Positions 3,001 to 42,248 of a stretch of 64,000 bases of DNA are shown in pieces. The position numbers and the translations under genes are program-made. This stretch comes from Pseudovirgaria hyperparasitica (taxonomy: Eukaryota): assembly GCA_010093815.1 (NCBI GenBank), contig ML996567.1. One strand, 5' to 3'. Numbering within the stretch: position 1 is the first letter of the stretch; each line of letters opens with the position of its first letter. The notes beneath the pieces were generated by a model. The model saw only the letters and a program-made list of their open reading frames with translations, ran no database searches and had not been told where the DNA came from.

Positions 3001-4627
3001 CGATATATCCTAGCTACTAGTACTTATAGTATATAACTAACTTAGTATCTATATTAGTATTTAGTGGTTTCCCTAAGCGGTACTTAGGTGCTATATGGCC
3101 TATCCTACCATAGGTGTAGTAGGTGACTTTAGGTCATTTATACGAGTCGTTTCTCGCGTCTTAATATATCGACTAGTAGAAAGATCCGCGGTACGGGCCT
3201 CGTCTTCTTAAGTTCGTAGAGTAGTAGCGCCCATAAGGTATTCCGCGCGATCTATTACTAAACCGGTCCTCTTTAGACGATTTTATATTAGATTAGATTA
3301 ATAGGGATAGTCATGCGTCTATACGACGTTAGTTATTTATTATACGCTAATGTTGTTCTACGAGATTCGCGAGTACCTAAAGGTTAGTAGAGATAGACGT
3401 TATAAGGTTAATACGTTTCTTTACGCTCGGGTTAAGGGACCTTTTAAAGTCGTCGTATTATTAAACTATATAATCTTCCTTAGCTTCTCTCTAAAGAGGT
3501 CGGAGATATTTAAGAAGTTATAATAGGGATTATCTCTCTCGCTATTAAGTCTTAAAGATATAGCTCTAAGCCTATTCGCGTCGCTCGGCTCTATCGCCGA
3601 AGTATTAAAGAAGGAATTCGGTAAACATATCCTAGTTATACGTATCCTTAGGGTATTTAATTCGATATACTATCAAACGTTTAGATGGCGTTAGGTCTAG
3701 GTAGTTCTATACGAACCTAATCTTATTACTATCGTTCGTGAATAGGTAGAAGAATCGGCTATACTAGTAAGCCTATTTATAAAAGCTCCTCCTAGTTTTA
3801 CCGTCGAAGTAAGGTAGTTTCTTAGGCTAAGGTAACTAGGATAGTAATAGACTTAGTTAGACTATTTCGGCTTAAGTTAGTCTATATTAGTATAGATTAG
3901 TTACTACTAGTACTAAAGCGCGTAGTACGGCTTCGAGTCTAGCGGTTCGTCCTTACGCTTTGTCGAGTTTACGAAGTTACTACTTAAGCTAAGTCTAACG
4001 CTACCTCTCCGTGTATAGCTTAGTATATATATTATTATAAGGCGTGGTTAACGTTAGTTAGTTCTAACGAATTAATTCATTAACGTTAATAGGGTCTAGT
4101 CTTATAGTAAGGATAGGTCTAGTATAGTGTAAACTAGACCGCGATGGAGTATAATAGACTTCTTCCTTATTATCTAGGTAATCTTCTACGGTTATATAGA
4201 ATACCGTACTAGTTATTAGTACGATAGCCTATAGAGTATACTTATTAGTAGAGGTGGTCGTAGAGAGACTATTCTCTTTGTTTAGATTTAGAGAGAGTCT
4301 CTCATATAAGGTAGTACCACGGGTATTATAGCGCGTAGTAGGAGCTATCTCTATAAGCTACCGTCGTACTATATAGAGAGGAATTAAAATATAAAGAGTA
4401 AAGACGTAGAATAGTAGTCTAATAGTTCATAGAGAGATATAGGAATATATTTATAGAGTAATCTTACTCTTATACGAGGTTAATTCCTAACGAGTAGGAA
4501 TCGGTTTATACGGTCTACTTATATAGTAACCTCGCTTAACTCAGCTAACTTAACCTAGCTCTAGCTACTACGTGGCTGCATGGATTAGAATGGTCTATAT
4601 AGGTCCGTTATGGTTCCCGTCCTAATA
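1..4627 (-). mobile_element. Ty3/gypsy LTR retrotransposon family A, copy 1 (5' portion; continues off the window's left edge), RIP-degenerated
   Basis: Minus-strand relic motifs: CCHC knuckle (~3080-3130), protease LNSG (ex LDSG, ~2830), RT VYLDNIL (~1835-1850), FANYYRKFI (~1570-1600), in PR-RT-RH-IN order. LTR 4390-4627 matches LTRs at 44999 and 52844. Colinear with 48455-53081. Confidence 0.93.
4390..4627 (-). repeat. 238-bp LTR of gypsy family A
   Basis: TATAAAGAGT...CCTAATA (RIP form of TG...CA); same length and near-identical to 44999-45236 and 52844-53081. Confidence 0.92.
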
Positions 4628-5782
4628 ATTATTATAGATTACTATTATTACTAGCTAAATATAGCACGAAAATTAGTAAATTATATAAATCGTACTAAAT
4701 TATAGTAAATCTATATAAATCTATATCTATAAGGATTAGGTAATATATCTAATAATCTAAAAAACTCTATAAAGAGTTAAGAAGTTTTTTAAAGAAAGGA
4801 ATATTTCTAAGAAAAGATTTTAATATAGATAGTACCTAGGCTTACCTAATTATATTACGTGATACACTAGGCCTAATTAGATAATCTTACCTATATAAGA
4901 AGTTAGAATAGATAAAATCTAGTTTATTAGGAAAACGCTTATATAAATCTTAGATTAGTAAATATTAGTAAGTATCTAAGATAAAGTATAGAGAATAACT
5001 AAGGTCTTATAAGACTTAGAATAGAGATATAGAGATAGATAATAATCTAGGTTACTAAGGGTAGCTTCCTAGAGGGAAGAGATAATTATTAGGACTTAGC
5101 CTTAGGTAGAACCTAACCTATATATACCTTAGCTAATAGGGTTAGAAGATAATATAAAGGGCGGTAAATAGTTACGTGCTAGATAGATCGGCGTCCCTTT
5201 ATATATATACTCTTAGATTTCTACTAAAAGGGTTTAGTAGTAATTCGTTCTAGGATAGAATACACTCTATTATTCTATCTAACTATACTACTATCTAATA
5301 ACTCTATTCTTATACTTTATATTATATAAAGAATTCTATTATACTATAGATTATTATTGCGTTATAAATTCTAAAAGGCTTTATAAAGATTTTAATATAA
5401 TTTCTAAGCGGCTAAGTAACTTCTACTATAAGACTTATAGTATATCTAAATCTATATATAAGAAGCCCTTAAGTATAGATAGATAATATACGATACGGTT
5501 TAGTAGAGTTTATAGCGATCTCTCTAGTAAAATATATTATAAATCTTTAAATAGCTTCTAGTACTATATCTTCTTTATTAAAGAGTTAACTTATTTTATA
5601 TAGATCTATTTTATAAGGTATAAGTCTAAAGCTCCTAATATTATTATATAATTTTTCGTATATATTAAAAGATAGTTTAATATAACTATTAAAGAATTCG
5701 TATCTAACTAAGGCGGTAAATATATTACTAAAAGTCTTTAAGACTTCTTTTATAAGATAGATACTATATATATTACCTCTCC

Positions 5783-5920
5783 TGTTACGGAAAGTGACAA
5801 GGAGATAGACAACGGCAAGAACCACGGACTAGTAGTCCTATATACATAGCCGTAGATTCCATGAAGTAGCTAGTAATCAATTCAATACTTGACCAAGACT
5901 TAACATCTCTATCCTTAACA
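5783..5920 (+). repeat. 5' LTR of gypsy family B (138 bp)
   Basis: TGTTACGG...CCTTAACA; by my alignment it differs from the 3' LTR at 8 positions, all C/T or G/A transitions. Confidence 0.95.
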
Positions 5921-6542
5921 TCTTGGTAGCTAAAAGCATACCACCAGCTAATCATTTTCGAAAGAAAGATAGCACTAGTCGAATATAAGACACCAACGCC
6001 CTGACGTACTAGTTCTCCGAAGCCGAATTAAAAGACGTTAATATCCCGACTTAGCGAACGAAAGACGCTTCCGTAAAATTTAGTAAAAGAAGTTTATAAA
6101 TACGGAGAGACAATTGGTAAGGATAAAAGAACACTAGGCACCAGGTAACGTTCGTCACCGTTACCATCATTAAGACTCGTAAGAGTATAAAATTATAACC
6201 GAAAGTCCCAAGGAAGGAGCTAAGGGAACGGTAAATAAAGGATTTGCCACCAGAGGAAAACAGGAATAAGTATCCGCATCAAAGGCCTCACCTTATTCCA
6301 ACTATACTAAATTCCATGAGACTCGTTCTAGAGGATTACTAAAAGGTAGTATAAGTACTAGTGTTCCTGAACGAGTCGTGCATTAAAAGGATCGAGCTCC
6401 CTATAATTCCCTAGTTCCCGTTAAGTAAGGAACACGACACTGCACCACGACCGGTTACACTCAGTGCTAGTCGAACCCTGCTTCATAGGAATAGGTTAGT
6501 ACTAATTAGACAAGACGATCAGCACGCGAAGCCTCGGTTTCC

Positions 6543-9500
6543 GCGAGCTACCAAGGTTAGAGTGGGTTCCTACTAAACATTCCCGATTACCTAAGTATAC
6601 TAGAGAAGCTCACGTCCGCGCCTCCCGCGGCCGACATTCTTAGCACGCTCGGGAATACATAAGATATACTAGCTCCCTCACTAGTATTATAGAAGGAACC
6701 GATTCCTAAGCTATTAGAGTAAGTTATTAAAACAGCTCATTAACTCATTCGTTACTTTAAAGATAGCCCACTACATGAATTAAACCCCTATACCCTTATC
6801 TTACTTCGAGGTATTGCCCACGTATACCTAGAAGTCTTAAGAAATCGAAATCGTTTACGGTCTAGGGGCAAACAGCCTTAGGAAGATAGATATCCTCCTA
6901 ACTAGAACTATCTCGTAAACAAAGATCACGGAATACATCTAGCGACTACTAAAGCTATAAAGGTCGAAAGGCTAGCGGTAAATTTCCGTTAATCTAAATA
7001 TTTTAGTAACTTTAGAAACTTCGTATAGCTAAGAGAAGTAAATTTACCTTCCTCGTCCCCTCCGTCATTAATTGAAGTTCCTACCGCGCTAAAGAAAAGG
7101 CCCGCAAGACTATAAGACTTCGAGTTTCACGACGAACCCGTGAGACCAGAGAACTCCAATTCTCGTGAGATAATAATCTCTAATCCTTACGAGGCGATTA
7201 TGGCACCGGAGAATCCTTACTAGAGAGGAAGCTCGAGCCAAGGCGTAGAGAGAAGCGGAGAGCAAGTCGGAACGCCTCAAAGCCTCGAGCCTCCAATTCC
7301 GGCTCCAATTCCAGTTCCCGTTATAGCTTAGTAAGCCCAGCCTAATATACTAAGCGTAGAAATGATCGCGCAAATTACGATGATAGTTTCAGCGGTACTT
7401 AATAATCGTGAGAGGGTAAATCCTCTAGTAGAATAAAGTAGAGCTAGCTAAGTCGCGCCCTCTTAGGAAAGGCCTTAGGGAAGAGATAAAGAAGAACTTT
7501 CCAGAGACCGTCCGTCTAGAAACGACTACTATAGGCAAGCTTAGCCTATAGTAAGAGTTTTAAGGAACGATAACGATCTAAGCGAAGGCTCGGACGATAA
7601 TCTATAGGGAGACGATAATAGAGCTCGTGGCTACCGTCGTAGATTATATATGCCCCCGCATCGTCGCCGGCGAACTACGGAAACTAGAGACTATAAAGAT
7701 AACGATAGCTTAAATCTAAGAGACACGAAGTTTAGGACGGAGGACATTGGATTCTTCGATCCGAGCATAGATCCTTCGAGAACGGAAGATGTTTATAATA
7801 AGAATAGAAAGGTCTATTATAGATCCGTTTAGCCGTTCATCGACGTAATAAGGAACTACTAGTAGATATGCCCTGCGAAAATCATTCGTTATAATCTCTA
7901 TAAGTGTCTTAGAGGCACGGCGTAAATTTGGTATAGCTCTTAATTAAGCGACGCTATAAAGTCAAGTCTTACCAGCGGAGATGGACTTAAGCGCTGGGTT
8001 AAGAAACTCGAAAAGAGATTCTCTATACCTCTAAGTGCCGCCTTAAAGAGACTCTAAGGCATATTATATGGCCCCGAGAACTTACATGGAGGCTAGAGCA
8101 CGACTAACTATGTTATGAAAGTACTTAGGGCTTATAAAGAAGCAAATTTGAAATCTAAAGCACTTATTATGGCATAGGCCTAGAATAAGCTCGACCTAAG
8201 ATTTAGGGTAAGCATAGAGGAACCCGAATCTAATACTAATCTAGATACCTTTTATAAATAGCTCGAGTAGAAATTATAGACCTGGCGTGAACTCTATAAG
8301 TAGAGTAAGTTCGACTATTCCTATTCTAGTAAAGCGTTATAAGGCTAGTATCCGTCGAACCGCTATCCTCGTAAAGAAAAAGAAGTCGGAAACGACTACT
8401 TTCGAGGGAACCGCGGGACACGATATAGTAGTGGCGGCGGACGAGAGGACCGCTCTAACAAGTTTTAGATAATAAAAGAAAGCGAGAAAACAATCTAAGT
8501 CGTATCTTCTTAGATAAACGAGCAAAGGTCTAGTAAAGACCACGGTTAAAACTAGTATTAAGGCAGAGACCGTCGCCCATATGAAGTAGACCGTCGCCTA
8601 TATGAAGGGAATGGTAAGTATTAGCCAAAGAGTTTCGAAAAGACTACGACGACTTCTATATAAGTCGAGAGGCAACCTTATGTGAAGCCGTAACGCGCCT
8701 ATTATAATATAGTCCTAGTAGAGTTTCTCGATTAAGAAGGATCATAAAATGAAGAAGACTCGCCGGACGAAGATTAGGGCGGATAAGCTTAAGAGTAAGC
8801 TAAAGAAAGCTAGTCGGACGAGGAACCTTATAAGAAGTTAGCTAGAGTTTTCTTCGTGAGAACCAAGGAAGTCGAGACTCTACCGGCACTATCGCTCGAG
8901 AAACCATAGAAGAGTAAAAGGACTATAGCGAGGAACTGTCGCGTCTATGGATAAAAGTATCCTTCCAATAACAAGCTATATTAGTATATTACGGAAAAGT
9001 ATCCGAAGAAACCAGTGGATCACGTATATATGGTGGACGAGTTTCTATCGCCCCTACTAGTACTACGAGTTATTAAGAGCACCGTAAAAAGGATAGGAAC
9101 GAAAGGCCATCGCTTTTGTTATTAGAACTACATTATAATGAACGTGACATTGAACGGGACCATAGAGCCTAAGTAAATAATCGTGGATACCGGAGCAAAG
9201 CTGAGTCTCGTGGACAGAAACTGGCTAGCCATAGTCCTACTAGATTATAAAAAGCATGTTACGAAACTCATGCACCTAATAGTAGTTATGGGCATTAGTA
9301 ATAAGGTTTATAATAGCGACGAGTCCGTTAAAATAACACTCATGGTACCTGCTACCATAGAAGGAAACGACGTCGCGGTTACTATTAAATGCGAAGCACG
9401 CATTATCGAAAACCTAGCACCAAAACTACTAATGGGCATGGATACCATTGGTCTAGAAGAAATGGACATTAAAGTTCAAAACCGTACGATTACCTTTCCA

Positions 9501-12500
9501 CACGGCCAAAATGCGGTAGCTCCTATAAGTGTCCGCCTAAGACATAAGAAGTAGTTAAATGTCATAGTAAGAGCGCAGCACTTAGTATCTATCAAGCCTA
9601 ATTTAAGAGGCGTGGTTCTCGTGGACACACGTAATCTCCTAAATGATCGCGATATGCTTTTTAAACCTACGAAAGAGCACCTCTCCGCTACCGGGAAGCG
9701 ATAAGCCGTAATTTATATGGTAGTTATCGACTCTAGTAGTGGAGGAATCGTAATCAAGAACGACGGAAACGAGACACTCGTAATTCCGAGGAATATGGTG
9801 CTTGGTAAAATCCGCGAACTAGATATCGTAGGATACTACTAAATCTCCGATGCTAACGTAGACCTCGCTACCCTTCCTCCCTTAGAAGCCGCGAACATTA
9901 ACCCTAAGCTTAAGACACGTCTCCTAAACGGAATAATACTCTATGGTAGGGAAGAGAAGGCTATAAAATATAAAGAACTCATTAAAGAGTTTATAGAGTT
10001 ATAGCGAGATAAAAAATCCGTCGTAAACTCTAGGGAAGTAAAGCTTATCCTCATGGAGGACTGGCGAGAACTTAAGAAGTTATATACTCGAGTATATAAC
10101 GTCGGCCCTCGGGACCGTGAAGTAATTAATAAAACCTTTAACGGGCTTTATAACGACGATAAAATAGGTTAGAGTAAGAAGCCTATCTAATTTGGCTCCC
10201 TAGTTTTTGTCGTCTAGAGAGAGGTCTATGATCTAAAGACAAACGGGCTAATATGGAAACCACGCGTTATAATTAACATTAGAGGTCTAAATGCAATTAC
10301 CGTAAAGGATTCCTACCCGTTAATAAGGATGGATGACATGCTCTAGGCTAGCCGAGATTACTATTACATCATAACGATAGATGCCATAAGTATATTCTAC
10401 TAATAGTTGGTTAGAGAAGAAGATCGTAAGTAATTCACGGTAAACACCCATAGAGGCCAAGAATACCTGAAAGTTCTTACCATGGGCTACGTTAATTTAG
10501 TATAACACGTCCAACGGGAACTCGATAATCTTCTACGAGAGTTCCCGTAGGTAAAAGCCTATATAGATAATATCGTAGTCTTCTCTAAGACATTCGAAGA
10601 GTATATTCATTATCTACGATAACTATAGAGTACTCTATTAGGCTTTAATATGTCTCTCGCCGTAACCAAGACGTTCGTCGGGTATCCAAGTGCCGTAATC
10701 TTAGGAAAGAGAGTTAACGCCTTTGGACTATCTTTAAAAGCGGAACGAATTACAGCTCTAAAAGAAATATAGTTCCCTAAAGATACAGTAGCACTTGAAC
10801 GATACCTAGGAATGGTAGGATATCTACGAGGATAGTTACCATACTATATATAGTTAGTCTTACCGCTACTAAAAGCTAGTACTAAGCTCTTCCGCTATGC
10901 CCCTCGTAAAAAGACTTAGAGAAAAGTATGGGCCTTAAAAAGGCTAGTTCCATAGACTAAAGCGCTTATCGAATCGTTTCAAGCCATATAAGGACTATGG
11001 GATGACCTAATTTTCTATTATTACCATAAGCTATTAAGACGTACATTCCTAGACGTCGACGCTTCGAAAGAGCATGGCTTTAGAGTCTTTATATACCACG
11101 TTCGCGGGGACCCAGACCCGGTAATATCGTTAGTTCCGGTTAACGACCCCGTCGATCCCGACGAGACTAATCTCAATCTACTCGACCCCCTAAGAATGTC
11201 ATGGCTACGCTAGGTAGAATTATTCCTAAGGGAAGTAATTCAACTAATATTATTTCTTAGTAAAGCCATCACGGCAACTAAACGAAACTATTAGCCCACG
11301 GAACTTAAAATGGCTGGTCTAGTTTAGTTAGTAACTAAGCTTCGACATTTCGTCGAATCATCTATATAGTTTATTATATTCACGGACCACGCCGTAATAA
11401 CGGCTATTACGTATTAGACGAAGCTCTCTAGCACAGCCGCTGATTATAAAAATATCCATCTTGTTCGAGCAGCCTAATATCTCTCATAATATAAGCTCGA
11501 CATCCGGTATCGCCCTAGTAGAAACCACATCGTGCTAGACGCTCTTAGTAGGCTTATAAGTACGGCGCCAGCCGTAGAAGGCAATGTGCTAGATAAGATC
11601 GCATAGACTTTTACGATCGGTAGCGATAAAGGGACGATTACTAAACTCACCCACGTCTATCACGTAGTCTTAATCAAAATAGTAGATGAATTTAAGGATC
11701 GCCTATGAAAAGCCTATAAAGACGACGAGGCATGGAATAAAGTACGCGAAGTACTAATTAAGGAAGATGCTCTCCGACATGGAGACGAGAACGTACTAAT
11801 GTATGTTAACTTCTCTAAAGGTGAATTACTACTAAAAGGGAAATCACAACCCCTGAATAGACTGAAATTCTTTATAAAAGATAAGATAATCTATAATATC
11901 GATAGAGGCAATGATCGGGAAAGGCTATGCATTCCCCATGCCCTTCTTGGCGAGATCTTTAACGTACTTTACGATTATAGTTTCTATTAAGGAGAGAATA
12001 GACTCTATAAGAGAGTGTCCGTATCTTTCTACGTACGCCATCTTTCGAAAGAAGTCAAGGCCTATATTAAATATTGCAAGTAATGTAACGAGGCAAGGAC
12101 CTCTCGGTAATAGCTATACGGGAGTTTCACGCCCATCGCGACTTAGCACGTACTATTTAGAACCATATGCCTCGACCTTATCACCGCCCTACCTAAAACA
12201 GTAACGGGTTACGACGCTCTAGCGCCTATCACCTATAAGGCCACGAAAAGAGTGCTTCTCGTTCTAGGATATACTAACTAGGGCGCTAAAGAATGGGCTA
12301 GTCTAATTCTACTAAACCTCGTTAAACACGATTGGGGAATTCCGGCTGAAATCATTTTAGATAGGGATGCGAGATAGCTTTTAGCCTTCTAGTAAAAGGT
12401 CTTTAGCATGCTAGGAGTTAAATTCCTAATATCCGCAGCATATCGTCTATAAATAGACGGCTAGATAGAGAGAATAAACTAATCCGTAGAGATCGGAATT

Positions 12501-13367
12501 CGTTTCGTGGTTACCGAGAATCCCGACGAAGATTAGGATGCCTACTTACTATTCCTATAAGGCTTCATGAATAACGCTATAAATAAAACCACTAGCATGT
12601 CTCTAAATAAGTAATTATATGGTTTTAAAGTTAAAGATAGCGCGGATGCACTGCATGAATTGCCTCCTAAAGATTATGAATCGCTCCGTTTAAAGAATAG
12701 AGAAATAGCCGCCGAAGCTGCCAGCTTCGTAGCGGTTATAATAAAGTACCGATATAATAAGAAGTATAAGCCTCTTCGTCTAAAACCCGGAGCCGAAGTA
12801 TATCTACGATTATACCACGGTTACCGCGTACACGGGCACGCAAATAGGAAGTTCGATATTTAGAGAACCGGTCCATTTAAAATTTTACGACGTATTGGGA
12901 ATAACGTGTATAAACTCGACCTTCCGGAGAGCGTGAAAATTCACCTAGTGGTATTAGTTAGCCAGCTAGTACTATACCCGCCCGGCACGGATCTATTCGG
13001 ACGCAACCATGGTACTAATGAACCACCTAGCGTTTTCACCGAAGACGATCTAGACGAATATCCGTCTTATGAAATTAAAAGGTTTCTCGACCGACGCTAG
13101 AATCAGAATATAAAGAAGAAACAGTACCTAGTTAAATGGAAGGGCTAGAGTCTAATTTATAACTAATGGTATAATGAAGAAGACCTTAGAGATGCCCGCG
13201 AACTTCGAGAGGAATTCGACATAATATACCCAACCTTAAAAACGGAGATGAGGAACCGTAAAAGAGGACCTAGACAAAAGGAATTCATAGCCTTAAGTAC
13301 TGAAAGGCGTTTCTTGCACAGCGTTGAAATCCCAGCTTAGGTTAGAAACCGAAAGGTTCCTACCTAA
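6543..13367 (+). pseudogene. RIP-inactivated gag-pol of gypsy B (start uncertain)
   Basis: Frame +3 throughout: gag GFFDPS (~7750), relic C2H2 finger (~8935-9000), protease VDTGA (9183), RT RGLNAITVKDSYPL and AYIDNIVVFS, RNase H DVDASKEHGF/TDH, integrase CLDLITALP and DG*IERIN, chromodomain YEIKRFLDRR...YLVKWKG (~13070-13150). Internal stops are mostly TAA/TAG. Confidence 0.9.
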
Positions 13368-13368
13368 G

Positions 13369-16300
13369 ATGGATACAATTCCGAATTATCATTAATTGCA
13401 TGTATACGTTCCTTTTCGCGTTTACCCTTTAGAAGTACTACCGTATAACAAAAGAATTATATTAATAAAAGAATTGTATCTAATGTTAAACGTATAACAG
13501 CATCAAAGCATTGCATCTAATATTAGATATATCTCTAACCTAAAAAACACACTTCACCGAAACTGCGCCTATGTGTATAACTATTCCTATAATCATGTCC
13601 CCTAAACATTCATAGTAATAGTAAGCGAAATAGTATAACGGTCCAAGAGGAATAGAATCCGTGAATAAAAACACAGCGACATTAATTATTACCGTATACC
13701 TACGAGCTTAAACGAATTCTTAACGTATTATAACACGAATTCCGTGAGGACGATAAAGGAGCAATCTCATAGCACTATATCTATATAGATTAACACTAGG
13801 ATCCGAGAATGCCCTCCTTACTATATATATCTCGATCGGCTATTAAGCACACGCTAGAGACTACCGTTTAGTATCCGTTAGTAGGAATATATTACTACAC
13901 ACGACGACGATGACGAACACGATACTATTTAGTAGTTAATAATATTATCGCTATACTTACCGCTATTAGTCCTCTTAACGACGCAAACCTAGTACTAGTA
14001 GATATAATCTTAGTAAAAGGAGAATTCACCCTACCGTCAAAGGAAGGTAGTGATAGTAACGTTACGCTCGCGAACACTCTTACCGCCGAGCTCGATTTAC
14101 CTTCTACTTACTCATCCTTAACTTAACGCGTAACTTATCTTTCTATCTTCTACCTTAACCTCGCAGAGACTCTAGCTTAATAAGTTTTATCTATAATCTT
14201 AAATAGTCACTAATTCCTCCTTACTCTTATATCTATAGTATATAAAGATAACACGGAGTAAAGATAATGAAGCTAAAGTCACCTTAGATAAGGAAAACGC
14301 CTTAACCCCGCTAAAAACAGTTACTAAGAGAGGTCGTAAGCGAAAGCCGAAAGGGAATGAAGGTGACGGAGGTTATTCGGCGAGCGAAATTAACGAAGGA
14401 AAGGCTATAAAGAGCAAGAAGTCACTGATTAAGAAGCCTACCGCCTTAAAATATAATATAGTTCCTGTTATAACTCGAGCGGTGTATGGAAAGCACCCTT
14501 ATATAAAAGGAATAACAAGCGGTATTATCGGAACTACATAATTGGAAACCTTTCTATTCTATAAAGCGCGCATTAGAATCGACGTAGAATAAAAAGGAAG
14601 CTTTAATAGAAGATACAACGAACGAAAACTAGTCTATGATTATCCTACCTTAGGAATTATGGTTAAGGGCCTCCGATTTGCGATGCCAACTCACGGCATC
14701 CACCTTTCTAATAAGTGTAAACTCGAGATTTACGTGGCATTGATGTTCCATAGGAAACTTAATAATATCTTTTGCTAGAAGGATATTATAAATAGATTTA
14801 TAGCGTTATTTTAAGTGTCGAAGACTTAGTCTTTAAAGGAAGTATCGCCTTTTATAACGAAGGAAGGCGATAATTTCTATATTCTACCGCGAAAGCTAGA
14901 CCCTCCCTATAAAGATGGATGCTTATACTACGATGATAAAGGAAAGCCGGTTGCGGTTAATGGAAAGTTCTACTATCTTGCCATCGGTTAGTACGTGCTC
15001 CATAAGGAGCGACCGATTCTTACCGACACCGATATTAAGAATTCTACCTGGTGGGACCCTTCTCTCCTAAAGTACGGGGTTTATCGTTCGAACATAGAGG
15101 TGTCGCAAATGGCATTATATAAGCTTTAATAGATTAACCTCCTATATAAGGAAGACAAGGGAGTCATGTAGGATCTGAAAGGTCTAACCATGCTACCAAA
15201 TGTCGCCGTGCTATATTATATTATAATCGAGACGAAAAATAAGCTTAAGATTACAAGGAAGGGCGAATAAAAGGCGTATGATAAGTATAGTGCGAGGCAC
15301 GGTACCATGCGTTATAATATTCTCGACGGTAGCATAATCTCTAACTCTAACTATAAATACGAGCCGCCCATGATAGAAGAGGAGGAACTAGTCGTCACAT
15401 GGTAATATTAGTTAGAATTTTCGGACCTAGGAGTAAATCCATACCGCCTCCGCCTAGGTTTGCTCGCTCTAGTATCTATGGACGAAATTAGGTACATTCT
15501 AAAGTAAAAAGAATTCTTTATAAAGATTCTAGCCACGGTTTCTAACAAAGAACTCGAGGAGAGTATAATATCCGCGGACGAGGAATGGAACTTCACCGTC
15601 ACACTCCTAAAAGGCACGAGATTCGAGGTAGAGTAACCGTCTAAGAGTAGTATTATCGCGTAGCTCTTAAAACCAGGTAATAGATACTCTATAAAGGAAA
15701 TAGCTTAAGTAGAATATACGTAGATTCCGGCACGATACTTCGTAATAGATACTATAGAGGAAATCCGGAGCCACTATAGTCACGCGTGGAATATACTAGT
15801 ATCTTAGCTATAAGGTTTGAATAGTAAGAATATTCGGTGCTACGCCGCATGGCGAAGGAGGGACGGATTAGTTTAGGTTACCGTTATAGCTTAGTAGTAA
15901 AGAGACATCGCCTAGGAATGGGTAATAGGACCCCTAGACTTAATCATATAGTAATTATAACATGATTAAGAAGCGACGCTCGTGGCGCACGAATACTAAT
16001 AATACATCCTCCATAGATACGCAAGATCCTAGCACGTCGTATAACGCCTTAAAGGACTTAACGGTAACCATATAATAGTACTATAATCGTCCGGATACCA
16101 GTTCTGGTTAATCTACCGTCTAAGTTCCCTAGAAGATAAGGCTAGAATTATAAAAAACGTCCGTGAAGTGTACTCATAGATACCATTAAATAAGGTTATA
16201 CTCTAAGACTTGGTTCGGAAATAGGGCCTAATAGAGAGCGCTATAGTAGACTAGCGTCGAGGAGTAGAAGAAAAGCTACTTAAAGAAGTCCACGCGCTAT

Positions 16301-18423
16301 ATGTAGAAGACATAGCGCGTGCATGGCTAATCTTGGTAGTCTCTCTTAAAGACCTCGCACGGAAATTCGCCACGGCCCATGAAAAAATACTATGGTTCAC
16401 GGATCCTTTGAATTACGGTGCCACGAACGACTAGGCAACCATGCCGATAATTATTCGAGACGGTTCCCGCGAAGATCGAATTGCATAGGGTAGGAAAATT
16501 AATAAACTCCTACCACGAAACCTGCTTAGTGGATGTACTTTAACCCTGCCTAAAATCTCTACGTAAACTGTTACTATAAGCTCGCTACCTAGTTTTGATA
16601 AAACAGATAACTTTTTCGTAATCGAAGGATTCACGAATACCAATGAGGTATGGCTAATCATTTCGGTAAGAGAGATCGCTAAGGGACCAAAGGCCGGAGT
16701 GTCTGCCTTAAACGTCCTAAGGAACCTAACCGAAGGCGTTATTAAATTAAGGACACCGGAAGAAACATAGACTCTGGTCACGAAGGCGATAGAGGTAATC
16801 AAGGTCCCACTCTCTATTATAAAACCTATGCCAGCCACCACCGCGAAGAAAGCCAAAATAGTAAAGAAGGTAAAGTCAATCACCGCCAAAACAATAGCAT
16901 CCAAGGTAGCTCCTACGTCGTTAGAACTTCCGCCTACCCTAATAGAGCTAACGGAGCTACGATCTACCTTAATTCCCGCGACCTTACCTACCTTAGTTCC
17001 CGCCGCGTTAACCGCAAACGCTATTAGTTAGTAAGAGGCGGAAATGAACACACTTATCTTAGCCCACGAGAAAAAGATAGAAGCATAAATCAAAGACATT
17101 ATAATGAAGGCTCTAAAAAGGTTCATAGTAGAAGTATAAGAGATCGCTGCGCAAAAGATAGCTATAGTAGTAGCAATAGCTGCGCCCGCGGTAACTGCTG
17201 CGCCCGCGGTAGATGCTTCATCCGGGAAAGAATTAATTAGGTAAACACTAAGAGTCACGGAATGGATAAAGAAATTCATGGAAATAATCATAGACCCGTA
17301 ACATCTAAATAGCGCGATAAGAACTATGGAGCGCGCTATGGAAGTAGGCGCGTAAGATATTAACGAAGTCATTAGGAGATACTAGTAATATATCCAAGAT
17401 AGCTTCGAACACCTACTCGCTATAAAAGAAGATAAACTACGTATAGCTTCTAACGGAACACCTTTCGAAACGCTCTTCGACGAAGTAGCGGCCGCTAGTA
17501 CTTATAATTACTATCCTGAACTCGATAATATTCAGATGGAAATACCGGTTTCTAGAATTCCTACGCCAGAACATCGGTTTAAAGAACTTCTAGAACGAAA
17601 CGCCTAGGAGCTCTTAGACGACAAGGCATTAAGCTTAGAAATTAAGCTACTAGAAGTTAGAGAATTAGATACTAACATGAATGACGACCTAATGGAAGTC
17701 GTGCACGAAGAAGCCGTCTTAGATAAGTTCAAGAAACAAATGTAGCAATTCGTAAAGCTCGCGAATACCGACGACTCGGAGTCGGTAAACGAATTTCATA
17801 ATGTAGAAGACTCCTAAATGGGAGAAGCCGCCGCAACTGAAACCGTCCTAATCATTGAAACTAAGGAAGTTACCGCCGCCATCGATAATGCTACCACTAA
17901 AACCATGCTAATAGTAGAGACTAGTGCCGTAGCCGACGTAAAGATTAACGTTATTGTAAGTGCCGTAGCCGACGTAGAGAATGACGTTATCGCAAGTGCC
18001 GCTGCGGCTATAAATATAGAAACCGTCATTATTCCGATACCTATAGTTCCTACTCCCGCTAAATCCACTCACTCGAACTGGCCGAGAAAAGACGATGATA
18101 CGTACGAATGGTCTTAGATCCCTATAGCTATACCGACGCTACGAATGGATCAAATGAATATAAAAGAAATGAGAGTAATAAGAATAGTACTAAATCGTAT
18201 ATTCGAATACCCTAATAACTAATTCGAAGCTTTCCTCGAGGTTCACGATAGGCTTTAGGAAGTTACTATAAATCTAAAGGTAATAGAAGCTATCCTCGCG
18301 TAAGAACCGGAGAGACGAAGAGCTATATTATAATAATACTATCAATACTTCTACCGACACCTAGGGAGTGATATAGCGTAGTATCTACACGAGCATCCAA
18401 CTAAAGTAAGCCTACCAGAGTAA
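13369..18423 (+). pseudogene. Relic ~1,680-codon ORF3 of gypsy B (unknown function)
   Basis: Frame +1 from ATG 13369 to TAA 18421-18423; all in-frame interruptions I read are TAA/TAG (RIP of CAA/CAG/TGG). ORF-track fragments 16828-17031 and 17818-18117 lie in this frame. Confidence 0.72.
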
Positions 18424-18462
18424 GGACTTTCACATTTATCGTTTCGAGCTGTTGGGGGCAGC

Positions 18463-18600
18463 TGTCACGGAAAGTGATAAGGAGATAGATAACGGCAAGA
18501 ACCACGGACTAGCAGTCCCATATACATAGCCGTAGATTCCATGAAGTAGCTAGTAATCAATTCAATACTTGACTAAGACTTGACATCTCTGTCCTTAACA
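18463..18600 (+). repeat. 3' LTR of gypsy family B (138 bp)
   Basis: TGTCACGG...CCTTAACA followed by TSD TCTCC. Confidence 0.95.
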
Positions 18601-20371
18601 TCTCCCGCCTACTTATATAAATTAAACGGAATAGCTAAACGATTTAATCGTACGGTTTAGACATTAGTAAGATTAATTCTCTCTTCTAATACTAAGTTAA
18701 AATTCTAGGCTAAAGCTATTTATATAATAATATTTATTAAGAATATTATACTATATACTTCTCTCCTAATAGTTAACACGCTATATTATACTCTCTTTAG
18801 TAAGAAACCTTCTATTTAAAACTTATATCTATTTGGAGTTATCTACTATATATATATTCTAAAAGAAGTATAAAAGCTAGGTAGTAAGCTCCTTTATAGA
18901 TTAGAGAAAGATATTCTAGTTAGCTATAGTAAGTTAGATAAAATCTATAAGTACTATATTTCTAACCGTAAGGTTATTATTAAGTTATAAGATATTACTT
19001 TCGTACCCTTTAGTCCAAGACCACTTCTATAGTAATCTCTTTTCTTAATTATTATAGAAAGAGATAGCTCTAAAGAAGAGTCGGATAATAGAGGAGTATC
19101 TTATAATATACTAGATATATTATATAATATACTAGTTGTAGTCTATAATATATAGGACCTCTAGCCCTATATAGAAGATATAATAAGTCTTACTAAGATA
19201 CCCTAATAAAGATTATCTACCCTTTCTTATAGTAGGACGCCTTCTACTATATCTAGGGTAAATTAACTAAAATTTAAATCTTTCTCTAGCTATAACCTAC
19301 TATATAAAAATCTATATCCGTTAAGATTACCTTCTAATATATCTTATTTTAGAAGGAAACATAAGTATATAATTTATTTTAATAACTCTATAAATTTAGT
19401 AGATATAGAAGAGAAGGAAATAGTCTATACTCTATTAGTTAATACTATCTTAAATATAGATGTTCCTTTAAATCTAAAAGAGGCTAGGAATTCTTCTAAT
19501 TAGTATTAGTAGTAAATAGCTATTAAAAAGGAGCTAAGAAGTTATAAGATTAATTAATTATAGTAGGAAGCTCTACTTACTACGAATGTCTCTATAATAG
19601 TTAGTTCTAGATAGATATTTAATATTAAGACTACTATAGATAATACTAAAGTTTATAAGGTATATCTTATTATATAGGGCTTTACGTAGAAATATAGTCT
19701 TAACTATAATAAAACTTTTACACCTATTATTAAGTATAATTCTCTTTATATTATACTCTAATAGACCGTGTAATATAGTAAGTATATTTACTAGATTAAT
19801 TTTAATACTATCTATCTAAATAGTAGTCTATCTAAAAATATCTATATAAGGCACCCGCTAGAATTTAAAAAACTAGGTAAGATTCTTAAGCTCTAAAAGG
19901 TAATTTATAGATTAAAATAATCTAGTTAGAAATGGTTTTATACCTTATATAATCTTCTTTAATCTCTTAAATTCTAATAGTTATAGTTTAATCTATATAT
20001 CTTTATTAGATATATTATTATTACTATCTATATTAATAACCTACTACTTATAGAGGAGAAACCTTATATTTAATACTTTAAGTAATAGATTATAGAATAT
20101 ATAAAATATAAAGATCTTAGAGAAGCGCGCTTAATATTAGGTATTAAGATTAATTAATCTTAAGAAGACTAAATTAAGCTTTCTTAAAAGGCTTACTCTT
20201 AATATATTCTAAAAAGGTTTAGTATAATAGATTATAATAGTAGAAAGACTCTAGTTAATATAAATACCTTTCTAATAAGATTAGAAGAAATCATTAATTA
20301 AGAACGCTAGCTTATATATATATAACTAATTAGGTTACTTAATTATCTTATTACTAGTACACGTCTAGATC

Positions 20372-20511
20372 TATTAGGCACGTGCCTACTAGTTAATTAT
20401 ACATGTATGTAGCAGTCGTATATAAGTAGTGTGCTCTACCCTTGAAGTAGTAGCTTTAAGATTCGGTCCTTTTAGTATAGTTGGTTAGTACGTAGAGCCC
20501 GCCTCCTTATA
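20372..20511. mobile_element. Solo LTR (140 bp) of a third family inserted in the copia pol
   Basis: Ends TATTAGG...CCTTATA (RIP of TG...CA), flanked by AGATC at 20367-20371 and 20512-20516. Removing it restores the copia TRLDLTFIVG (ex TRPDLA.AVG) motif. Confidence 0.8.
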
Positions 20512-21273
20512 AGATCTTACCTTTATAGTCGGAATATATACTATTTTTAATATAAATCCGTTGGAGTAATATACTTAAATAGCCTTTAGTATATTATAAT
20601 ATATTAAGTATACTATTAACTAATACCTTATATTAAAGAAATCTAAAGGCGTAATAGAAATTAATATATTCTTAGATACTTCTTAGAGTTTAGACTCTAA
20701 TACTACGAAGTCTATCTCTATATATATACTTTAATTAAATAGAAGCTTAGTAGCCTAGAATAGTAAAAGGTAATTATATATTACTAAGTCGACCTATAAA
20801 GTAGAGTATATAGCCTATTTAAAGGCTATAAGTTACTTATAGTAGGCTCTACTAGATATAAAAGAGATTTTCGATTAAGATATTCTAGTTTCTTATCTTC
20901 TTATAGATAATTAAGCTACTATAGCTCTTATCCGAAACTAGTAAATTATAGTATAGTCTAAATATATTATAATATACTATTACGCGGTTTAAGAATTATT
21001 TACTAATAGAGTTATATCTATATAGTATATTATAAGTTACGATAATATTACTAATATAGAAATAAAAGGACTACCCTTACTACTACTAAATTAAATAAAG
21101 ATAATAATTAGTTTATAGTAGAGTTATCTTACTTATAGCCGTTTCTCTCTTAGTTATTTCTCTTATATCTCTCTTTCCTTTATTCTTTTAATACTATCTC
21201 TTACTATTACTTACTTTAAGCTTTTCTTTATTCTAATATTACTAAGTATATATATATACTTAGTATAGGGGAG

Positions 21274-21433
21274 TGTTATCGGAAGGCACTTTAAGTAAGA
21301 GACACTACTTCCTAAACGGGACTAGTGTCTAAACGGTTAAATAGCTTCGACTCTGTCTCCCAGAACTTAGTTCTCTACACACTTACAGAATACACTCAAT
21401 GACCTCAATTACGTCTCCGTTTCTCTTATAATA
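21274..21433 (+). repeat. Probable 3' LTR of the copia element
   Basis: Begins TGTTAT right after PPT AGGGGAG and ends ATAATA (RIP form of the inverted ATAACA). The partner LTR is not in the window, so the end is inferred. Confidence 0.6.
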
Positions 21434-22106
21434 CTAATCAAGTACATGTCCTCATCACTTCGCCGTGTTATAGCGCTTTCGTAGCAAACTTACCATGAAA
21501 TTATAGGCTCATGGGAAACCGAATATGGTTCCGCCTTGCCATTGAATCTGCTTTGAAACCGTAAGTATGATGTTCTTCCACCATACGTAGCGATCCACTA
21601 TGAAAGTTAGTCATTGAGAACTCAACAATTAGGACGACAGACCTTGAGGGTCATGTCTGTTCGCGTAGTCCAATCGTTGAACCAGGCGACGCTCCATTCA
21701 ATCACTCTATCAAAATGGCACATATGCCTGGTCCTGGTATTCACGGTACTGCCCACATCGTCGGCTCGTCTATCGCAGGTCAAGCATTGGAGATATAGGC
21801 TGATCTAATGATAAAGCAATGTTTTTGTTCTAGGCGGTTTCAAGTGTTCTGGTAGATAAGTAGTGGACTTAAGGATGGGGTAATTAAGGGTGACGAGGAG
21901 GGAAGAGGAGGCGGATGATAAGGGTCATGGCATCTGTGGAGTGTTTGACTTAACGTCCTTGTTCGAGAGAAAAAACCACGACCGTATCCACCAAGGGGTG
22001 ATCGGAAGGGTTATGGCGAAGAGCGTTCGAGCACAGGACACAGGCTTTCGCCGGTACTAGGGGAACAAATCAAGAGAAACACCGACTTTCATTTGAATGA
22101 CGAATT

Positions 22107-23460
22107 TTACAACCTGGACGAGATGTTCTGCGCCAGAACCTCTTTCGCCCCTTTTAATTGCGCTTCGAGGTCTTCCTCCCACAGCCATTTCATACGTACA
22201 GCCATGTTCTCCCTATACTTGTCAAGATCATCCATTACACCCGGCTTCTCAAAATCGTAGAGCTGCCCACAGTCCCTACTTGTCGTGACCAGATCCTGTG
22301 TGCGCTTTCTCCGCACGGCGTCGAAAGTCTTGAAAGCTGCTTCGATCTCACTTTTGTCGTTGATGGCAGCCAGGATCTCGCTCATCATCCACGAGTCTTC
22401 AATGCATATTCCAGCACCGGCGCCCTGGTGTGGTGTCGATGCATGAGCTGCATCACCGCTAAGACAGATTCGTCCTTTGCAGTACGTTTCCGCAGGAGGA
22501 TGATTGAAAAGTGCCCATACGTCGCTCTTCTTTGTCAGGTTGATGATGTCGATGGCATGCTGGCTCCAGCCCTCGAAGTCTTTTAACATGTCTTCCTTGG
22601 TCATGGACACAACCCACTGGTCAGAGTCCCACGTGTCGCGACTGCTGAATGCGACCACTATGATAATGTCAGCTCGAACATCCTATTCCAAGTCCGGTTA
22701 AGTCGTTACCGTTCATCGTTTTTCCTTTCTCAATGGCAAACGTGAGTATGTGACCGCCATAGCCGCCGTAATTCTGCGAATTCATTGCCAGCTCCTCCCC
22801 GAGAAGTTCCACTGCCTCGTTCATGGGAATAAGTCCTCTATATGCGTACTTGCCCGAAAATACAGCTTTTGTCGCTGGGTTGTCTTTCCCAAGAACGACT
22901 CCGCGCATAGCGCTCTTGATGCCGTCGCACCCTATGACAGCGTTGTGCTGCGCCGTCGTGCCATCCTGGAAATGAAGAAGCACGTCTCCATTGTCCAGTT
23001 TCTCCACATCGACCAATCTCTTCCCAAAGTTTGATATTTCCTGCGGCACAAGCTTCACCATCTCGTCCAAGAAATGAGCGCGATGTACGCTCGCCTGGCC
23101 ACCTTCACAGGGAAGTGCAAACCACTTGTCTCCGCCCTTCAAGCCTCCATCTTTCGACCCAGGCTTGGGCTTCCATTTTGCATCGCCTAGTCGGAAGTCG
23201 AACCAAATATCCTTCTTGCTGTCCCACTGATTGTGTGTTGCGACTTTCTTGAAAGCCTTCTCGACGTCTGGGGAGATCAGGCGCATGGCACGCTGCGCAT
23301 TGGGCCCGAAGGAGACGCCTGCACCGATTTCGCCGAACTTAGGAGCTGCTTCATAGAGTGTTGTTTTGATGCCCTTGTTCAGTAGAGCAGTTGCTAGGGT
23401 AAGTCCGGATATGCCGCCTCCTACGACGGCGATATCGAACGACTTCTCAAATGGTGACAT
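22107..23460 (-). CDS. FAD-dependent monooxygenase, salicylate hydroxylase-like (2 exons, intron 22658-22709)
   Basis: GGGISG FAD motif, GCDGIKS, GDAAHASTPHQGAGAG; a GT-AG intron with CTGAC branch point joins the two ORFs (MN|VVAF). Confidence 0.92.
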
Positions 23461-24061
23461 TGTGGACGTAAGCTGGCTGATTCAAGGACAGGAGGGTAAG
23501 AGCTACCTGACAACAGGAATTGTCTGGAGCATGAGTTCGATTTGTACGTATGCATTTTGATGAAGCTCTGAAGCGGGGAGCTCTTCGGGATATGGTCAAG
23601 GCATACTGAGCTCTGTCGGAAGAGGGCCACAGCCGATGCATGAAGCCATACGGAAGGTGACTTTACGACTCCATTGATCGTGGACTAGGGCTGACCATGC
23701 TGCTCGGCGAAAGCTCTGAGATAGTTCGCATCATACCGCGTGACGGTCCACTCAGAAGGGGGACATTGTCAGTGATGAATGTTGAAGCCTGTAGAGCAGC
23801 TTGGACGTGGAGCCTTATGGGTGCCGAAGAGGGGTTGTTCATTCAAGCTTACCTAAAAGGTTATAGCGTAGCGAATCTCAGTCCCAGCCTTGGGCGGACT
23901 TTCCTCCAGCAACAAACGACACCATCCAACATATCCCACACTGATCTCAGACGTTATTTTTTATATTCGTCCTTCGTTGATGCTGCAGTGAGGCCTGTAT
24001 GAGCGGCTACCATATAATGCAAGTGCTGTGAGTTCGTATACTATCAAAAGTCGACGACGAG

Positions 24062-24974
24062 ATGGCGCAGATATACGATCATTCAAACATCAGGATCGCC
24101 ACACGGGCCAAAGAAGAGCATGGATCTTTCGACACTGTAACGACTGTGCTTGTGACTGGCTATGGTGTAAGATAGTTTTCCATTCATATTTTCGTGTAGC
24201 AGATCAGTGCACTCTACTGTCTGAAAGAGTTTTGTTGCACGTGTCACTTATTCAGCTGTTTGTATAGCCATTCCTCCAAGAACATGAGGACAATTCGTCA
24301 TGGCGTATAGCATCAACTCTACCCTCTATTCTTCCAGCTACGAGAGATCACCCTATCCCCATCCGGATTGTCGTCTACCCCTGGCCGATCCGCGTGTCCT
24401 ATCAAGCAGTCCTGGACCTTGTCCCTTCGCTTGTAGAGAAGGTCAACCCAGATATCATCTTGCACATCGGCCTAGCCTCTGGTAGGACCACAAGTGTGAA
24501 GTTCAGTACAGATCGACTAACACGCTAGGTCGCAACTTCTACGCCATCGAACACGGCGCCCACAAGTCCATCTACGGTACGCATATCGACGTTGATGGCC
24601 AAGGCTTCCCCCAAGAACGCAGTGACGAAGCATTTGGTGACCTGCCCAGTATCCTCGAAACGGGATTCGACGTCCATGATCTGTATCGGCGCTGGAAAGC
24701 AGAAATACCCGACGCTAACGCAGACATCAGAACCTCACCAGACGCTGGGAACTTTCTCTGTGGCTTCATCTATTACACGTCGATGTCGTTGTTCGCTAAG
24801 ATGAAACGTGCGGAGCGGCCAGTAATGTTTTTCCATGTTCCATATCTATCGACGGAGGAACAGGTAGACGAGGGGAGGGAGGTGACGAAAGGGTTGATCA
24901 GAGCGTTGGATGAAAGTCGGGCAAGGCGGGGGACGCATCATGGGAATGTGGGTGCTGGTTCTCGTAACACCTAA
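24062..24974 (+). CDS. Pyroglutamyl-peptidase I (C15 family), 3 exons
   Basis: VLVTGYG|PF, PDIILHIGLA, YAIEHGA (Glu), DAGNFLCGFIYY (Cys), FFHVP (His); introns ~24167-24267 and ~24482-24528. Confidence 0.88.
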
Positions 24975-25790
24975 GGGCTCTCCTAACTAGCTTTCCAGTC
25001 GTATGAATGACATCCATTACTCAGTGTATCGCTGCAGACTCAAGTTTAGACACCGAGAGACTGGTGATTTAGCGAGCTGATTAAGCCAGACGATGTTGCC
25101 ATAGGGCCTCACTGTGGCTGATCCATGGTAATTGTTCGCTTCCGATCATTGACGTCATAGCTTGGTGATAGCCTGGGAGATCTGCTAATAAGGGATGAAA
25201 TTTGCGCATACACAGTTTGAAAGATACGCATAGTGCATCAGACCTCACGCAGAGATGCTACATCGTTAACATCAGACTTCCTTCCAAGTGAATTCCAACT
25301 AGAGCACCTACATCAAAGCTCCAGTTTCCACAGTGCACTACCTATACTGTTCCTCATATTAACGACGCTCCATTAATACTTCCACCCCAATGCCGACAGG
25401 GATCACCGAACGCCATTCACATAAAACTTTACCGATGTCAGGGATGATCATCCTTGCTACAACCACCGCCAATACTGGTCAGAGGACATGATAATCTATA
25501 TATTACCTGCAGACTGTAGACTGTGTTGAAAGAGTAGATAAGTGTAACAGAGCTTAGACACCTCCGAGTCTGATGCACAGGCGAGATATGATAACAATCG
25601 AGCTTAATAGACCTAGCTACTTTAGAAATTACTTTCTTTCACATCGACCAGCAAATAATTTGCTTAGAGCTATCACTAGTTCTCCGTTAGGATCTAGCGA
25701 AACAACTTGGTTAGTAGTTGAGGCTAATGCACTCGCTCTAACGTTGACTGCTGTCTCTATACGCGGCTGGCAGGGCTGACTTTATCGACT

Positions 25791-40912: not shown

Positions 40913-42248
40913 ATGACAATCTGCCAATGTAGAGGGCCTGCGGCGCGTCAGTTCTTCAACTGCCTCTATCGATGGAGTGCGCGTTCAGGTAATGTGGGTA
41001 TACGCTGCCAGAATTACAACTTACTCTTCCACAGAGTGCCCTCCCTACAGCTGTGCTCTTGGCTCAACTCTACAACGTACGCAAGGTCTTTCGAGAACGA
41101 AATGCCGAGTCTCAATGTACCTAATACGTACTCATTCTACAATCAGAGAGATACCCCCAGTAGCGCAGAAAGAGCTAGATAGGATGAAAGGCAGTTACGA
41201 ATGGGGCGACGAACGCTTCTTGGCTGACCCTATGGTATTGCAAAGGCCACGCGAGGAGGAGATAGATGCGCTGCGGGAATCGATCGACCCGCAAATGCGA
41301 AAAGATCTTTTCATCAAAGTCTTTCGCGAGCTGATGAACCCTGTCGCTCTCATAACGGCAATCACAGAGCCTATTGAAGAAGCTGATAGTGGTAGAAAAG
41401 GATATTCAAACGTTCAGATCATGACGATAAGCTCGCTGACGTCAGTGACGGTATCGCCTGTTCCATATGTCTCTTTCAACATTAAGATTCCATCGCGCAC
41501 CTTTGATGCTATGGGGCCGCTGTTCCGCATCAGCTTGCTGGTCTGTAACAAGATAGCTGCATTCACGGCCGAGCAATTCACGATGGGCGACGCGCGGGAG
41601 ATGCTTCTAGGCTTCACGGGTTCCAAATTACCGACGCTCAAGAGCGATGACATTCGGATACCATATCTCGAAGGTGTTAGCACTGAGTCCCTTATCTGCA
41701 AAGTGGACAAAACAATGGAAGTTGGAGATCATGTCGTGGTAGTAGCAGAGGTCTTGGACGTCCGCCGCGATCAAGTCCGTGGTAGCGAGACGCGTCATCT
41801 ATACTACAGGACAGGAAGGTACGTCGATGATAACGGGGTCAGCATGCAACCACGAGAAGACGTGTACGACCAACTATGGCATGTTATTGTAGCCAAATCG
41901 ATACACTATCTTAAAGGCCCGCAGGGCCCGGATACATTGCGAGCAGAAGGACTCATAGGGATTCTCAAAGCTACAAAGATATATGAGATTAGAGATACGC
42001 AGCGGGGTACCATGCATCTGAATTTGATGCTCACGATATTGAAGCAGACTTGTCCAGAACTTCTATGTAACTTATCCGACGAAGAATTGATGAAGGGATT
42101 CCAGCCAATCCCATACGACATGTGGGAAGGTCTGGTTGCGAGCCAAAGGAAAACAGCTAGTAGCAGAAGGCCTGAGAAAAAGTCGCTCCCAAATGCCTCA
42201 GCGCCTCAAGAGAAAAGCAATCTACCAAATTCAGACATAGCTACCTAG
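40913..42248 (+). CDS. Flavin reductase-like domain protein, possibly mitochondrial (5' structure uncertain)
   Basis: FRELMNPVALIT, MTISSLTSVTVSP.PYVSFNIKIPSRT, VGDHVVVVAEV, LYYRTGRY are typical of the split-barrel flavin reductase family. Confidence 0.75.

Follow-up and report, generated by a model that had tools for sequence, protein, structure and literature searches.

What fills the 5 kb between the end of pol and the 3' long terminal repeat (LTR) of a complete 12,818-bp LTR retrotransposon in Pseudovirgaria hyperparasitica? The element lies at 5783-18600 of a 64,000-nucleotide stretch of contig ML996567.1 (assembly GCA_010093815.1), referred to here as the window. A preliminary description, made from the sequence alone, had read 13369-18423 as a single sense open reading frame (ORF) of ~1,680 amino acids, broken by repeat-induced point mutation (RIP). 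We find that a large sense ORF does lie between pol and the polypurine tract (PPT) but that it spans only about 1,394 codons, at 14242-18423; we call it ORF3. Our verdict is that ORF3, which RIP inactivated, occupies the env position as an additional ORF, an orphan specific to its family. We consider it on balance probable that 14242-18423 is the RIP-wrecked third sense gene of a chromovirus family, with a nuclear accessory role suggested by its composition.

We compared the distribution of stop codons among the reading frames of the interval. In the frame originally proposed, 13369-18423 contains 84 stops in 1685 codons, consisting of 44 TAA, 40 TAG, and 0 TGA, and the earlier statement that only TAA and TAG interrupt this 5-kb sense frame is therefore correct. 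The other two forward frames contain 189 stops (13 TGA) and 132 stops (20 TGA), and the three reverse frames contain 116, 87, and 149 stops with 5, 15, and 23 TGA, respectively. Within ORF3, the 60 internal stops in 1393 codons are all TAA or TAG, and the final stop is the TAA at 18421-18423. The resulting stop density of 4.3% compares with 4.5% in gag-pol and with 10.2 stops per 100 codons, counted over all frames, in neighbouring RIPped DNA. If ORF3 had as many stops per codon as neighbouring RIPped DNA does, about 142 would be expected (P=5.8e-15); the mean over the remaining five frames of 14242-18420 is 109 stops (range 56-163; P=1.8e-7). Were TGA as frequent among its stops as in those frames, finding none among 60 would have a probability of P=7e-4. 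This six-frame profile resembles that of pol, where the sense frame of 9000-13367 has 53 stops, one of them TGA, and the other five frames have 74-143.

Codon usage and periodicity were measured along the same frame. Codon log-odds trained on pol were positive in this frame in all nine 450-nt windows across 14475-18423, and no frame scored higher. The 3-base periodicity of ORF3 follows a single phase, with p down to 4e-17; as in pol, codon position 1 is rich in G and position 2 poor in it. The single frame and single phase confirm that no frameshift is needed to read this sequence, as had been claimed. Stops, surviving Gln, and surviving Trp together make up 6.0% of ORF3 and 5.9% of gag-pol, so lost Gln and Trp codons can account for the ORF3 stops; their conversion by RIP is also what hides the gene from ORF finders, again as proposed. 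Taken together, these data show that the ORF3 frame was open, or nearly so, before RIP, and they put coding sequence where LTR retrotransposons have their additional ORFs (aORFs), namely between pol and the 3' LTR.

The coding signal does not extend back to pol. In the spacer at 13369-14241, periodicity is absent in both windows that lie inside it (p=0.77 and 0.33), and the overlapping windows at 13725-14324 and 14025-14624 gave p=0.04 and 0.55. No frame is favoured there, and the frame originally read has 7.9% stops, 0% Gly, and 1% Ala. Since the first 870 nt carry no coding signal, the length of 1,680 amino acids is too long, and the Q/S/P-rich first region that had been described falls away as part of the protein. 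Two ATA codons, at 14242 and 14248, may derive from ATG.

The two LTRs record how the element was damaged. They differ at 8 of 138 positions, and all eight differences are CpA-to-TpA or TpG-to-TpA exchanges in one direction or the other. Because every LTR difference is of the RIP type, this copy was young when RIP struck; all damage visible through the LTRs is RIP, and the element was intact at insertion. The internal segments have TpA/ApT values of 1.36-1.55 and (CpA+TpG)/(ApC+GpT) values of 0.47-0.58, compared with about 0.7 and about 1.2 in genic DNA, and these indices together with the LTR differences identify a RIP-mutated repeat. ORF3 (1.36-1.44 and 0.55-0.58) is RIPped like pol (1.43 and 0.53), whereas the flanking repeats are RIPped harder, with (CpA+TpG)/(ApC+GpT) at 0.16-0.18. 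When gag-pol is aligned with its six closest relatives, TAG most commonly faces Trp (48 of 232), then Gln (24), and TAA most commonly faces Gln (44 of 147). Of the 247 aligned sites where the relatives have His, 28% carry Tyr in the element and only 17% carry His; since His and Cys codons become Tyr codons under RIP, the element's Tyr share is inflated.

Contigs from two DNA runs of one sample (X1 and X2) were mapped on 5001-25000 at 80% likeness or more. The summed contig depth, which is not a copy number, was 270-288 in X1 over a single-copy neighbouring gene (21676-25000), 1654-2850 over pol (9003-13004), and 1702-2647 over the ORF3 bins (13672-18340). The corresponding values in X2 were 292-314, 3137-5396, and 3070-4164. 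ORF3 depth thus equals pol depth, at about 6-18 times the single-copy depth. Even depth over pol and ORF3 means that ORF3 belongs to a multi-copy family, and it argues that the family carries ORF3 as it carries pol rather than that this copy made a one-off capture. According to an excerpt of PMC7264820, a transduced ORF is confined to one or a few copies, while most copies have a conserved additional ORF; by this distinction, the even depth favours a conserved additional ORF.

Among the matches listed, pieces about 81-82% alike cover 14447-14725, 15386-15780, and 17229-17465, and on a 60-kb contig the sequence matching 18159-18259 lies about 200 nt upstream of an LTR copy. The ORF3 indels among those listed, which are too few for counting, include +15 nt and a joint net -63 nt, both in frame. 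Changes between copies in the X1 contigs are mainly transitions (538 C>T, 511 G>A, 285 T>C, and 194 A>G), compared with 158 transversions. Elsewhere in the window, blastn and tblastn found no second ORF3 copy or relative. Contigs of X3 and X4, which are spliced on the neighbouring gene and read as RNA, cover the element only in the bin 10337-11003, at depths of 37 and 15; this cover is apparently a short piece between loose ends at 10564 and 10600 and is uninformative on silencing.

The family itself can be placed through gag-pol, which has the Ty3/gypsy chromovirus domain order of reverse transcriptase, RNase H, and integrase followed by a C-terminal chromodomain. In residues of the frame starting at 5925, Pfam located RVT_1 (1445-1586), RT_RNaseH (1772-1836), Integrase_H2C2 (2003-2059), SH3_Tf2-1 (2291-2350), and Chromo (2382-2431); it missed the rve core and the protease, both of which fall within pairwise alignments to relatives. 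The gag-pol stop is the TAA at 13365-13367, although the TAG at 13338 is a possible original stop instead. With X placed at every stop of the translated queries, both here and for ORF3, the best pol match was a Diplodia seriata polyprotein of 2195 aa (E=7.3e-191, 655 bits, 39% identity in the best local alignment), followed by a Zymoseptoria tritici polyprotein of 1972 aa and four more; 18 proteins matched at E<=1e-10 among those 1849-5000 aa long. The relatives align from residue 541-603 of the 5925 frame, i.e. from about nt 7545, and the pairwise high-scoring segment pairs (HSPs) show 20-39% identity from gag through the chromodomain, with gag alone at E=1e-14 to 1e-28. The gag region also contains a 21-nt in-frame tandem repeat at 8567-8607 (2 copies, 95% identity).

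These relatives end 2-138 residues after the pol match. In five of the six closest, the C-terminus lies only 2-50 residues beyond the pol match (match end/protein length: P0001, 2180/2195; P0002, 2017/2067; P0003, 2013/2015; P0005, 1963/1972; P0006, 1947/1955), and the sixth, P0004, has a 138-residue tail (2087/2225), so none of the six polyproteins has a long extension past the pol match. Four of the six are encoded on contigs of 7.1-9.4 kb; unless these are truncated, gag-pol and a 4.2-kb ORF3 could not both fit on them.

Relatives of ORF3 were sought in protein, domain, structure, and contig collections. An exhaustive HMMER search with 14299-17898 (1200 residues) against 1.84 billion representative proteins returned 0 matches at E<=0.001, and a word-index protein search with 14299-16842 likewise returned none. 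Pfam found no domain in any of the six frames of 13369-18423, and neither NCBIfam nor the PDB sequences gave an ORF3 match. Pattern matches to ORF3 numbered 97 in metagenome contigs and 13 in viral contigs, and 0 were confirmed in either set. Comparison with the 18 long gag-pol relatives gave only HSPs at E=6.6, and neither an internal duplication of ORF3 nor a likeness to the element's leader or gag-pol was found. RIP alone does not explain the absence of matches, since the equally RIPped pol scores 655 bits; at the same time, the integrase core and protease missed by Pfam indicate that weak domains can be lost in this copy.

The composition of ORF3 changes along its length. The N-terminal part is 22.9% Lys, with 20 Lys or Arg among 70 residues and no stop codon, and the basic motif KRGRKRKPK noted earlier is present at 14326-14352. 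The central part had been described as aromatic-rich, a distinction that disappears on comparison, since Phe, Trp, and Tyr make up 9.7% both there and in gag-pol and Tyr is inflated by RIP. The linker (19.8% Ala, 11.1% Lys, 8.7% Thr, and 6.3% Pro) and the acidic C-terminal part (68 Asp or Glu versus 41 Lys or Arg in 401 residues) are as first described. The only tandem repeats in ORF3 have units of 18 nt (in the linker, 17179-17217, 2.2 copies) and 36 nt (in the acidic part, 17923-18001); both are multiples of 3 and in frame. Single-sequence AlphaFold2 models of 14452-16842 and 17221-18420 were unusable, with mean pLDDT (per-residue model confidence) of 27.4 and 34.7; in the latter, roughly the first 200 residues are mainly helical, in weak agreement with a helical C-terminus.

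These features suggest how ORF3 could have arisen and acted. An ancestor of the chromovirus family would have acquired the gene once, and the gene would then have been carried through amplification of the family. The 870-nt spacer without coding signal after pol points to translation either from a subgenomic mRNA produced by splicing or from one initiated internally; retroviral env and some plant additional ORFs are likewise expressed from spliced or internally initiated messages. A nuclear accessory role is suggested by the Lys-rich N-terminus with KRGRKRKPK, a linker of the AKKAK type, an acidic tail, and a start unlike a signal peptide; rather than an envelope protein, the product may have been a nucleic-acid- or chromatin-binding protein acting, for example, in nuclear import, targeting, or regulation. 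RIP finally killed ORF3 and gag-pol together. We are more hesitant about the fuller claim that a very large gene (about 1,400 residues) without relatives served the element life cycle, for example in chromatin targeting, nuclear import, or anti-silencing, and hold it to be rather doubtful.

Several observations weigh against reading ORF3 as a single accessory gene of the family. Its start is only approximate, and the depths that tie it to the family are sums over contigs and not copy numbers. At least one other copy, accounting for part of the depth, shows a 1-nt insertion at 17453. The suggested function is drawn from composition, which RIP itself alters (for instance Glu to Lys, Ala to Thr or Val, and His or Cys to Tyr). 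The RGRK within KRGRKRKPK also differs from RGRP, the core motif of the AT-hook. The remaining objections each lend weight to a different explanation of the locus, and the explanations are taken here in order of how well they survive.

The alternative that we take most seriously, while doubting it, is that ORF3 was passive cargo, acquired when the family founder transduced, once, all or part of a host or foreign gene that then rode along without serving the element. Such cargo would account for the same data. The closest relatives lack a long tail beyond pol, the noncoding spacer separates ORF3 from pol, and gene transduction by LTR retrotransposons is documented (PMC7264820, in excerpt). The lack of matches is also compatible with this origin: an AMSH-like host gene in the window reaches at most 54% identity in the protein collection, its matches being led by Botryosphaeriales, with Pleosporales and other groups after them, so the host lineage is poorly represented and a lineage-specific host gene would also find no match. 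We take the host to belong to the Pezizomycotina, probably as a dothideomycete. However, the same excerpt limits transduced ORFs to one or a few copies, yet ORF3 is as deep as pol, and no cellular homologue that would mark a captured conserved host gene was found for 14299-17898 among the 1.84 billion representatives. Moreover, at its insertion this young copy still had an open or nearly open frame, as the match in stop density to gag-pol and the eight of eight RIP-type LTR differences attest.

We think it unlikely that true stops hide among those of the RIP type, with the interval having instead held two or more shorter ORFs in a shared frame, or a gene that had decayed by the time of RIP. 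RIP converts TGA to TAA, and original TAA and TAG codons are indistinguishable from RIP products, so hidden genuine stops could split ORF3 into two or three ORFs in the single copy that was read. Stops are densest at 15600-16200, with 21 in 200 codons, and composition shifts sharply among the four parts of ORF3. Against this, the frame is constant over 4.2 kb, the stop density is not above that of gag-pol, and the sum of stops, Gln, and Trp is normal.

An env-like membrane glycoprotein of the kind known from errantiviruses and plant Athila-type elements would fit the position and orientation of ORF3, and two 19-residue Kyte-Doolittle windows, at 17158 (1.96) and 17989 (1.74), exceed the usual membrane threshold of 1.6. 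Both windows lie within Pro-containing, low-complexity stretches of Ala, Val, Ile, and Thr, one of which is an AAPAVT tandem repeat, and RIP raises hydrophobicity there by changing Ala to Val and Thr or Val to Ile. The absence of an obvious signal peptide, noted earlier, is borne out insofar as the start, which is approximate, allows: the first 70 residues are 23% Lys without a hydrophobic run and contain none of the eight most hydrophobic windows. Given also that Cys makes up only 0.4% of ORF3 and that no Pfam envelope family matched, we regard an envelope protein as very unlikely. Least likely of all is that 14242-18423 is an unrelated nested transposable element (TE) with its own termini, a possibility raised in the preliminary description, or an antisense gene, or noncoding DNA open by chance: although nesting is common in RIPped AT-rich blocks (PMC3105345, in excerpt) and one antisense frame is as open as ORF3 with 56 stops, no pair of repeats encloses the segment in the way termini would, Pfam detected no TE domain in six frames, its RIP level is that of pol and not of the flanks, its contig depth is also that of pol, the antisense frame has 8 TGA and codon scores that are negative or near zero, and chance is excluded by either of the P values for stop number given above.

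The boundaries of the element are well marked (Table 1): direct LTRs with TG...CA ends, a target site duplication (TSD), a primer-binding site (PBS), and a PPT identify it as an LTR retrotransposon. The PBS-like site may match the 3' end of the initiator tRNA-Met. The leader shows weak periodicity in the gag-pol phase at 5925-7544, and that frame is without TGA from 6001 onward; Pfam gave no match in it. It may be a long leader or an N-terminal extension of gag, and leader and ORF3 together make the element oversized at both ends. Rfam found no family on 5700-18700.

Table 1. Coordinates of the retrotransposon, of the parts of ORF3, and of host gene exons, as positions in the window.
Feature	Position	Strand	Basis
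TSD TCTCC, 5' copy	5778-5782	.	identical 5-mer beside each LTR
5' LTR, 138 bp, TG...CA ends	5783-5920	+	direct repeat with 18463-18600
PBS-like site starting TGGTAGC, 3 nt past 5' LTR	5924-5935	+	read from sequence
1.6-kb leader, PBS to start of gag homology	5936-7544	+	no alignment to relatives, no Pfam match
gag-pol, RIP-degraded, single frame, chromodomain at end	7545-13367	+	Pfam domains, alignments, stop codons
Spacer without coding signal	13368-14241	+	periodicity, frame preference, composition
ORF3 remnant, about 1,394 codons, start approximate	14242-18423	+	stops, codon usage, periodicity, contig depth
ORF3 basic N-terminal part, including KRGRKRKPK	14242-14451	+	composition
ORF3 central part, 797 codons, mixed composition	14452-16842	+	composition
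ORF3 Ala/Lys/Pro/Thr-rich linker	16843-17220	+	composition, 18-nt tandem repeat
ORF3 acidic C-terminal part	17221-18423	+	composition, 36-nt tandem repeat
PPT-like TTGGGGGCAGC (G-run), abutting 3' LTR	18452-18462	+	read from sequence
3' LTR, 138 bp	18463-18600	+	direct repeat of 5' LTR
TSD TCTCC, 3' copy	18601-18605	.	identical 5-mer beside each LTR
MFS/sugar transporter exon	28295-29626	+	host gene
AMSH-like JAB/MPN deubiquitinase exon	36063-37517	-	host gene
Flavin-reductase-domain protein exon	40917-42248	+	host gene

In the window, GC-rich genic DNA (about 50% GC) alternates with AT-rich blocks (24-42% GC), and the retrotransposon lies inside one of the latter. Very abundant repeats flank it at 5001-5667 and 20342-21008, where the X1 summed depth reaches about 94,000 and 23,000 compared with about 270 for single-copy DNA. 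Weak translated matches to the reverse transcriptase and integrase of the element occur on the minus strand at 1518-2147 (E=0.002) and 47953-50301 (E=0.014); these look like remnants of other, harder-RIPped gypsy-like families in neighbouring AT-rich blocks, and neither contains an ORF3 match. On the other side of the element, X3 and X4 contigs are spliced across 21404-25000, where they skip 21561-21632 (GT..AG), 22658-22709 (CT..AC), 24167-24267 (GT..AG), and 24481-24527 (GT..AG), so expressed genes begin within 3 kb of the RIPped block.

How does ORF3 compare with known extra genes? That fungal chromoviruses are gag-pol only and much shorter, as first assumed, is too strong: in the text and Figure 3 legend of Novikova et al. 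(2010, PMC2864245), to which this comparison is limited, their lengths run from 4.4 kb to over 13 kb, and the drawings of some include an 'add. ORF' without a known function. The present element resembles these in being a chromodomain Ty3/gypsy element with an extra ORF. Boty/BcGypsy1 of Botrytis cinerea carries the antisense extra gene brtn (Zhao et al., 2011, as cited in excerpts of PMC8365987 and PMC7264820). Compared by description only, both are fungal Ty3/gypsy families with an extra gene between pol and the 3' LTR, but brtn is antisense and ORF3 is sense. ORF3 is presumably also much larger than brtn.

Plant LTR retrotransposons contain conserved sense 'env-like' aORFs between pol and the 3' LTR that are present in all or most family copies, have no known function, often lack database similarity, and in some cases are expressed from spliced RNA (PMC7264820, in excerpt). 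As far as that excerpt describes them, ORF3 shares their position and orientation but differs in belonging to a fungal chromovirus, in not being convincingly membrane-anchored, and in being unrelated to them by any detectable sequence similarity. Retroviral and errantiviral env genes are likewise sense-strand third genes that sit between pol and the PPT, whereas ORF3 lacks a signal-peptide-like start, a convincing transmembrane anchor, and an envelope family match. The polyproteins of the Dothideomycetes relatives have the same gag-pol architecture as the present element but end 2-138 residues after the pol match. We also considered the gypsy element RLG_Rolly of Leptosphaeria maculans (11,875 bp with a 235-bp LTR in Table 4 of PMC3105345) as a member of the same family and dropped it, because its LTR length differs and the best AMSH-like matches, at 54% identity or less, include none from Leptosphaeria.

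We found no comparable sense ORF of such size for fungal LTR retrotransposons in the literature, and to our knowledge a family-wide sense ORF of about 1,400 codons would rank among the largest additional ORFs. Additional ORFs of LTR retrotransposons are poorly understood, and ORF3 is a variant of this known kind. The value of the finding is limited until an intact or RIP-corrected sequence yields a fold or a function. Nevertheless, ORF3 indicates that the extra genes of such elements can far exceed usual size expectations and that RIP conceals whole genes from both ORF finders and protein databases. Genes hidden in this way can be recovered from a stop density set against that of gag-pol, from 3-base periodicity, and from a lack of TGA. 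If the accessory role proposed for ORF3 is true, its product would found a new class among the accessory proteins of retrotransposons, one that has escaped annotation through the RIPping of every copy.

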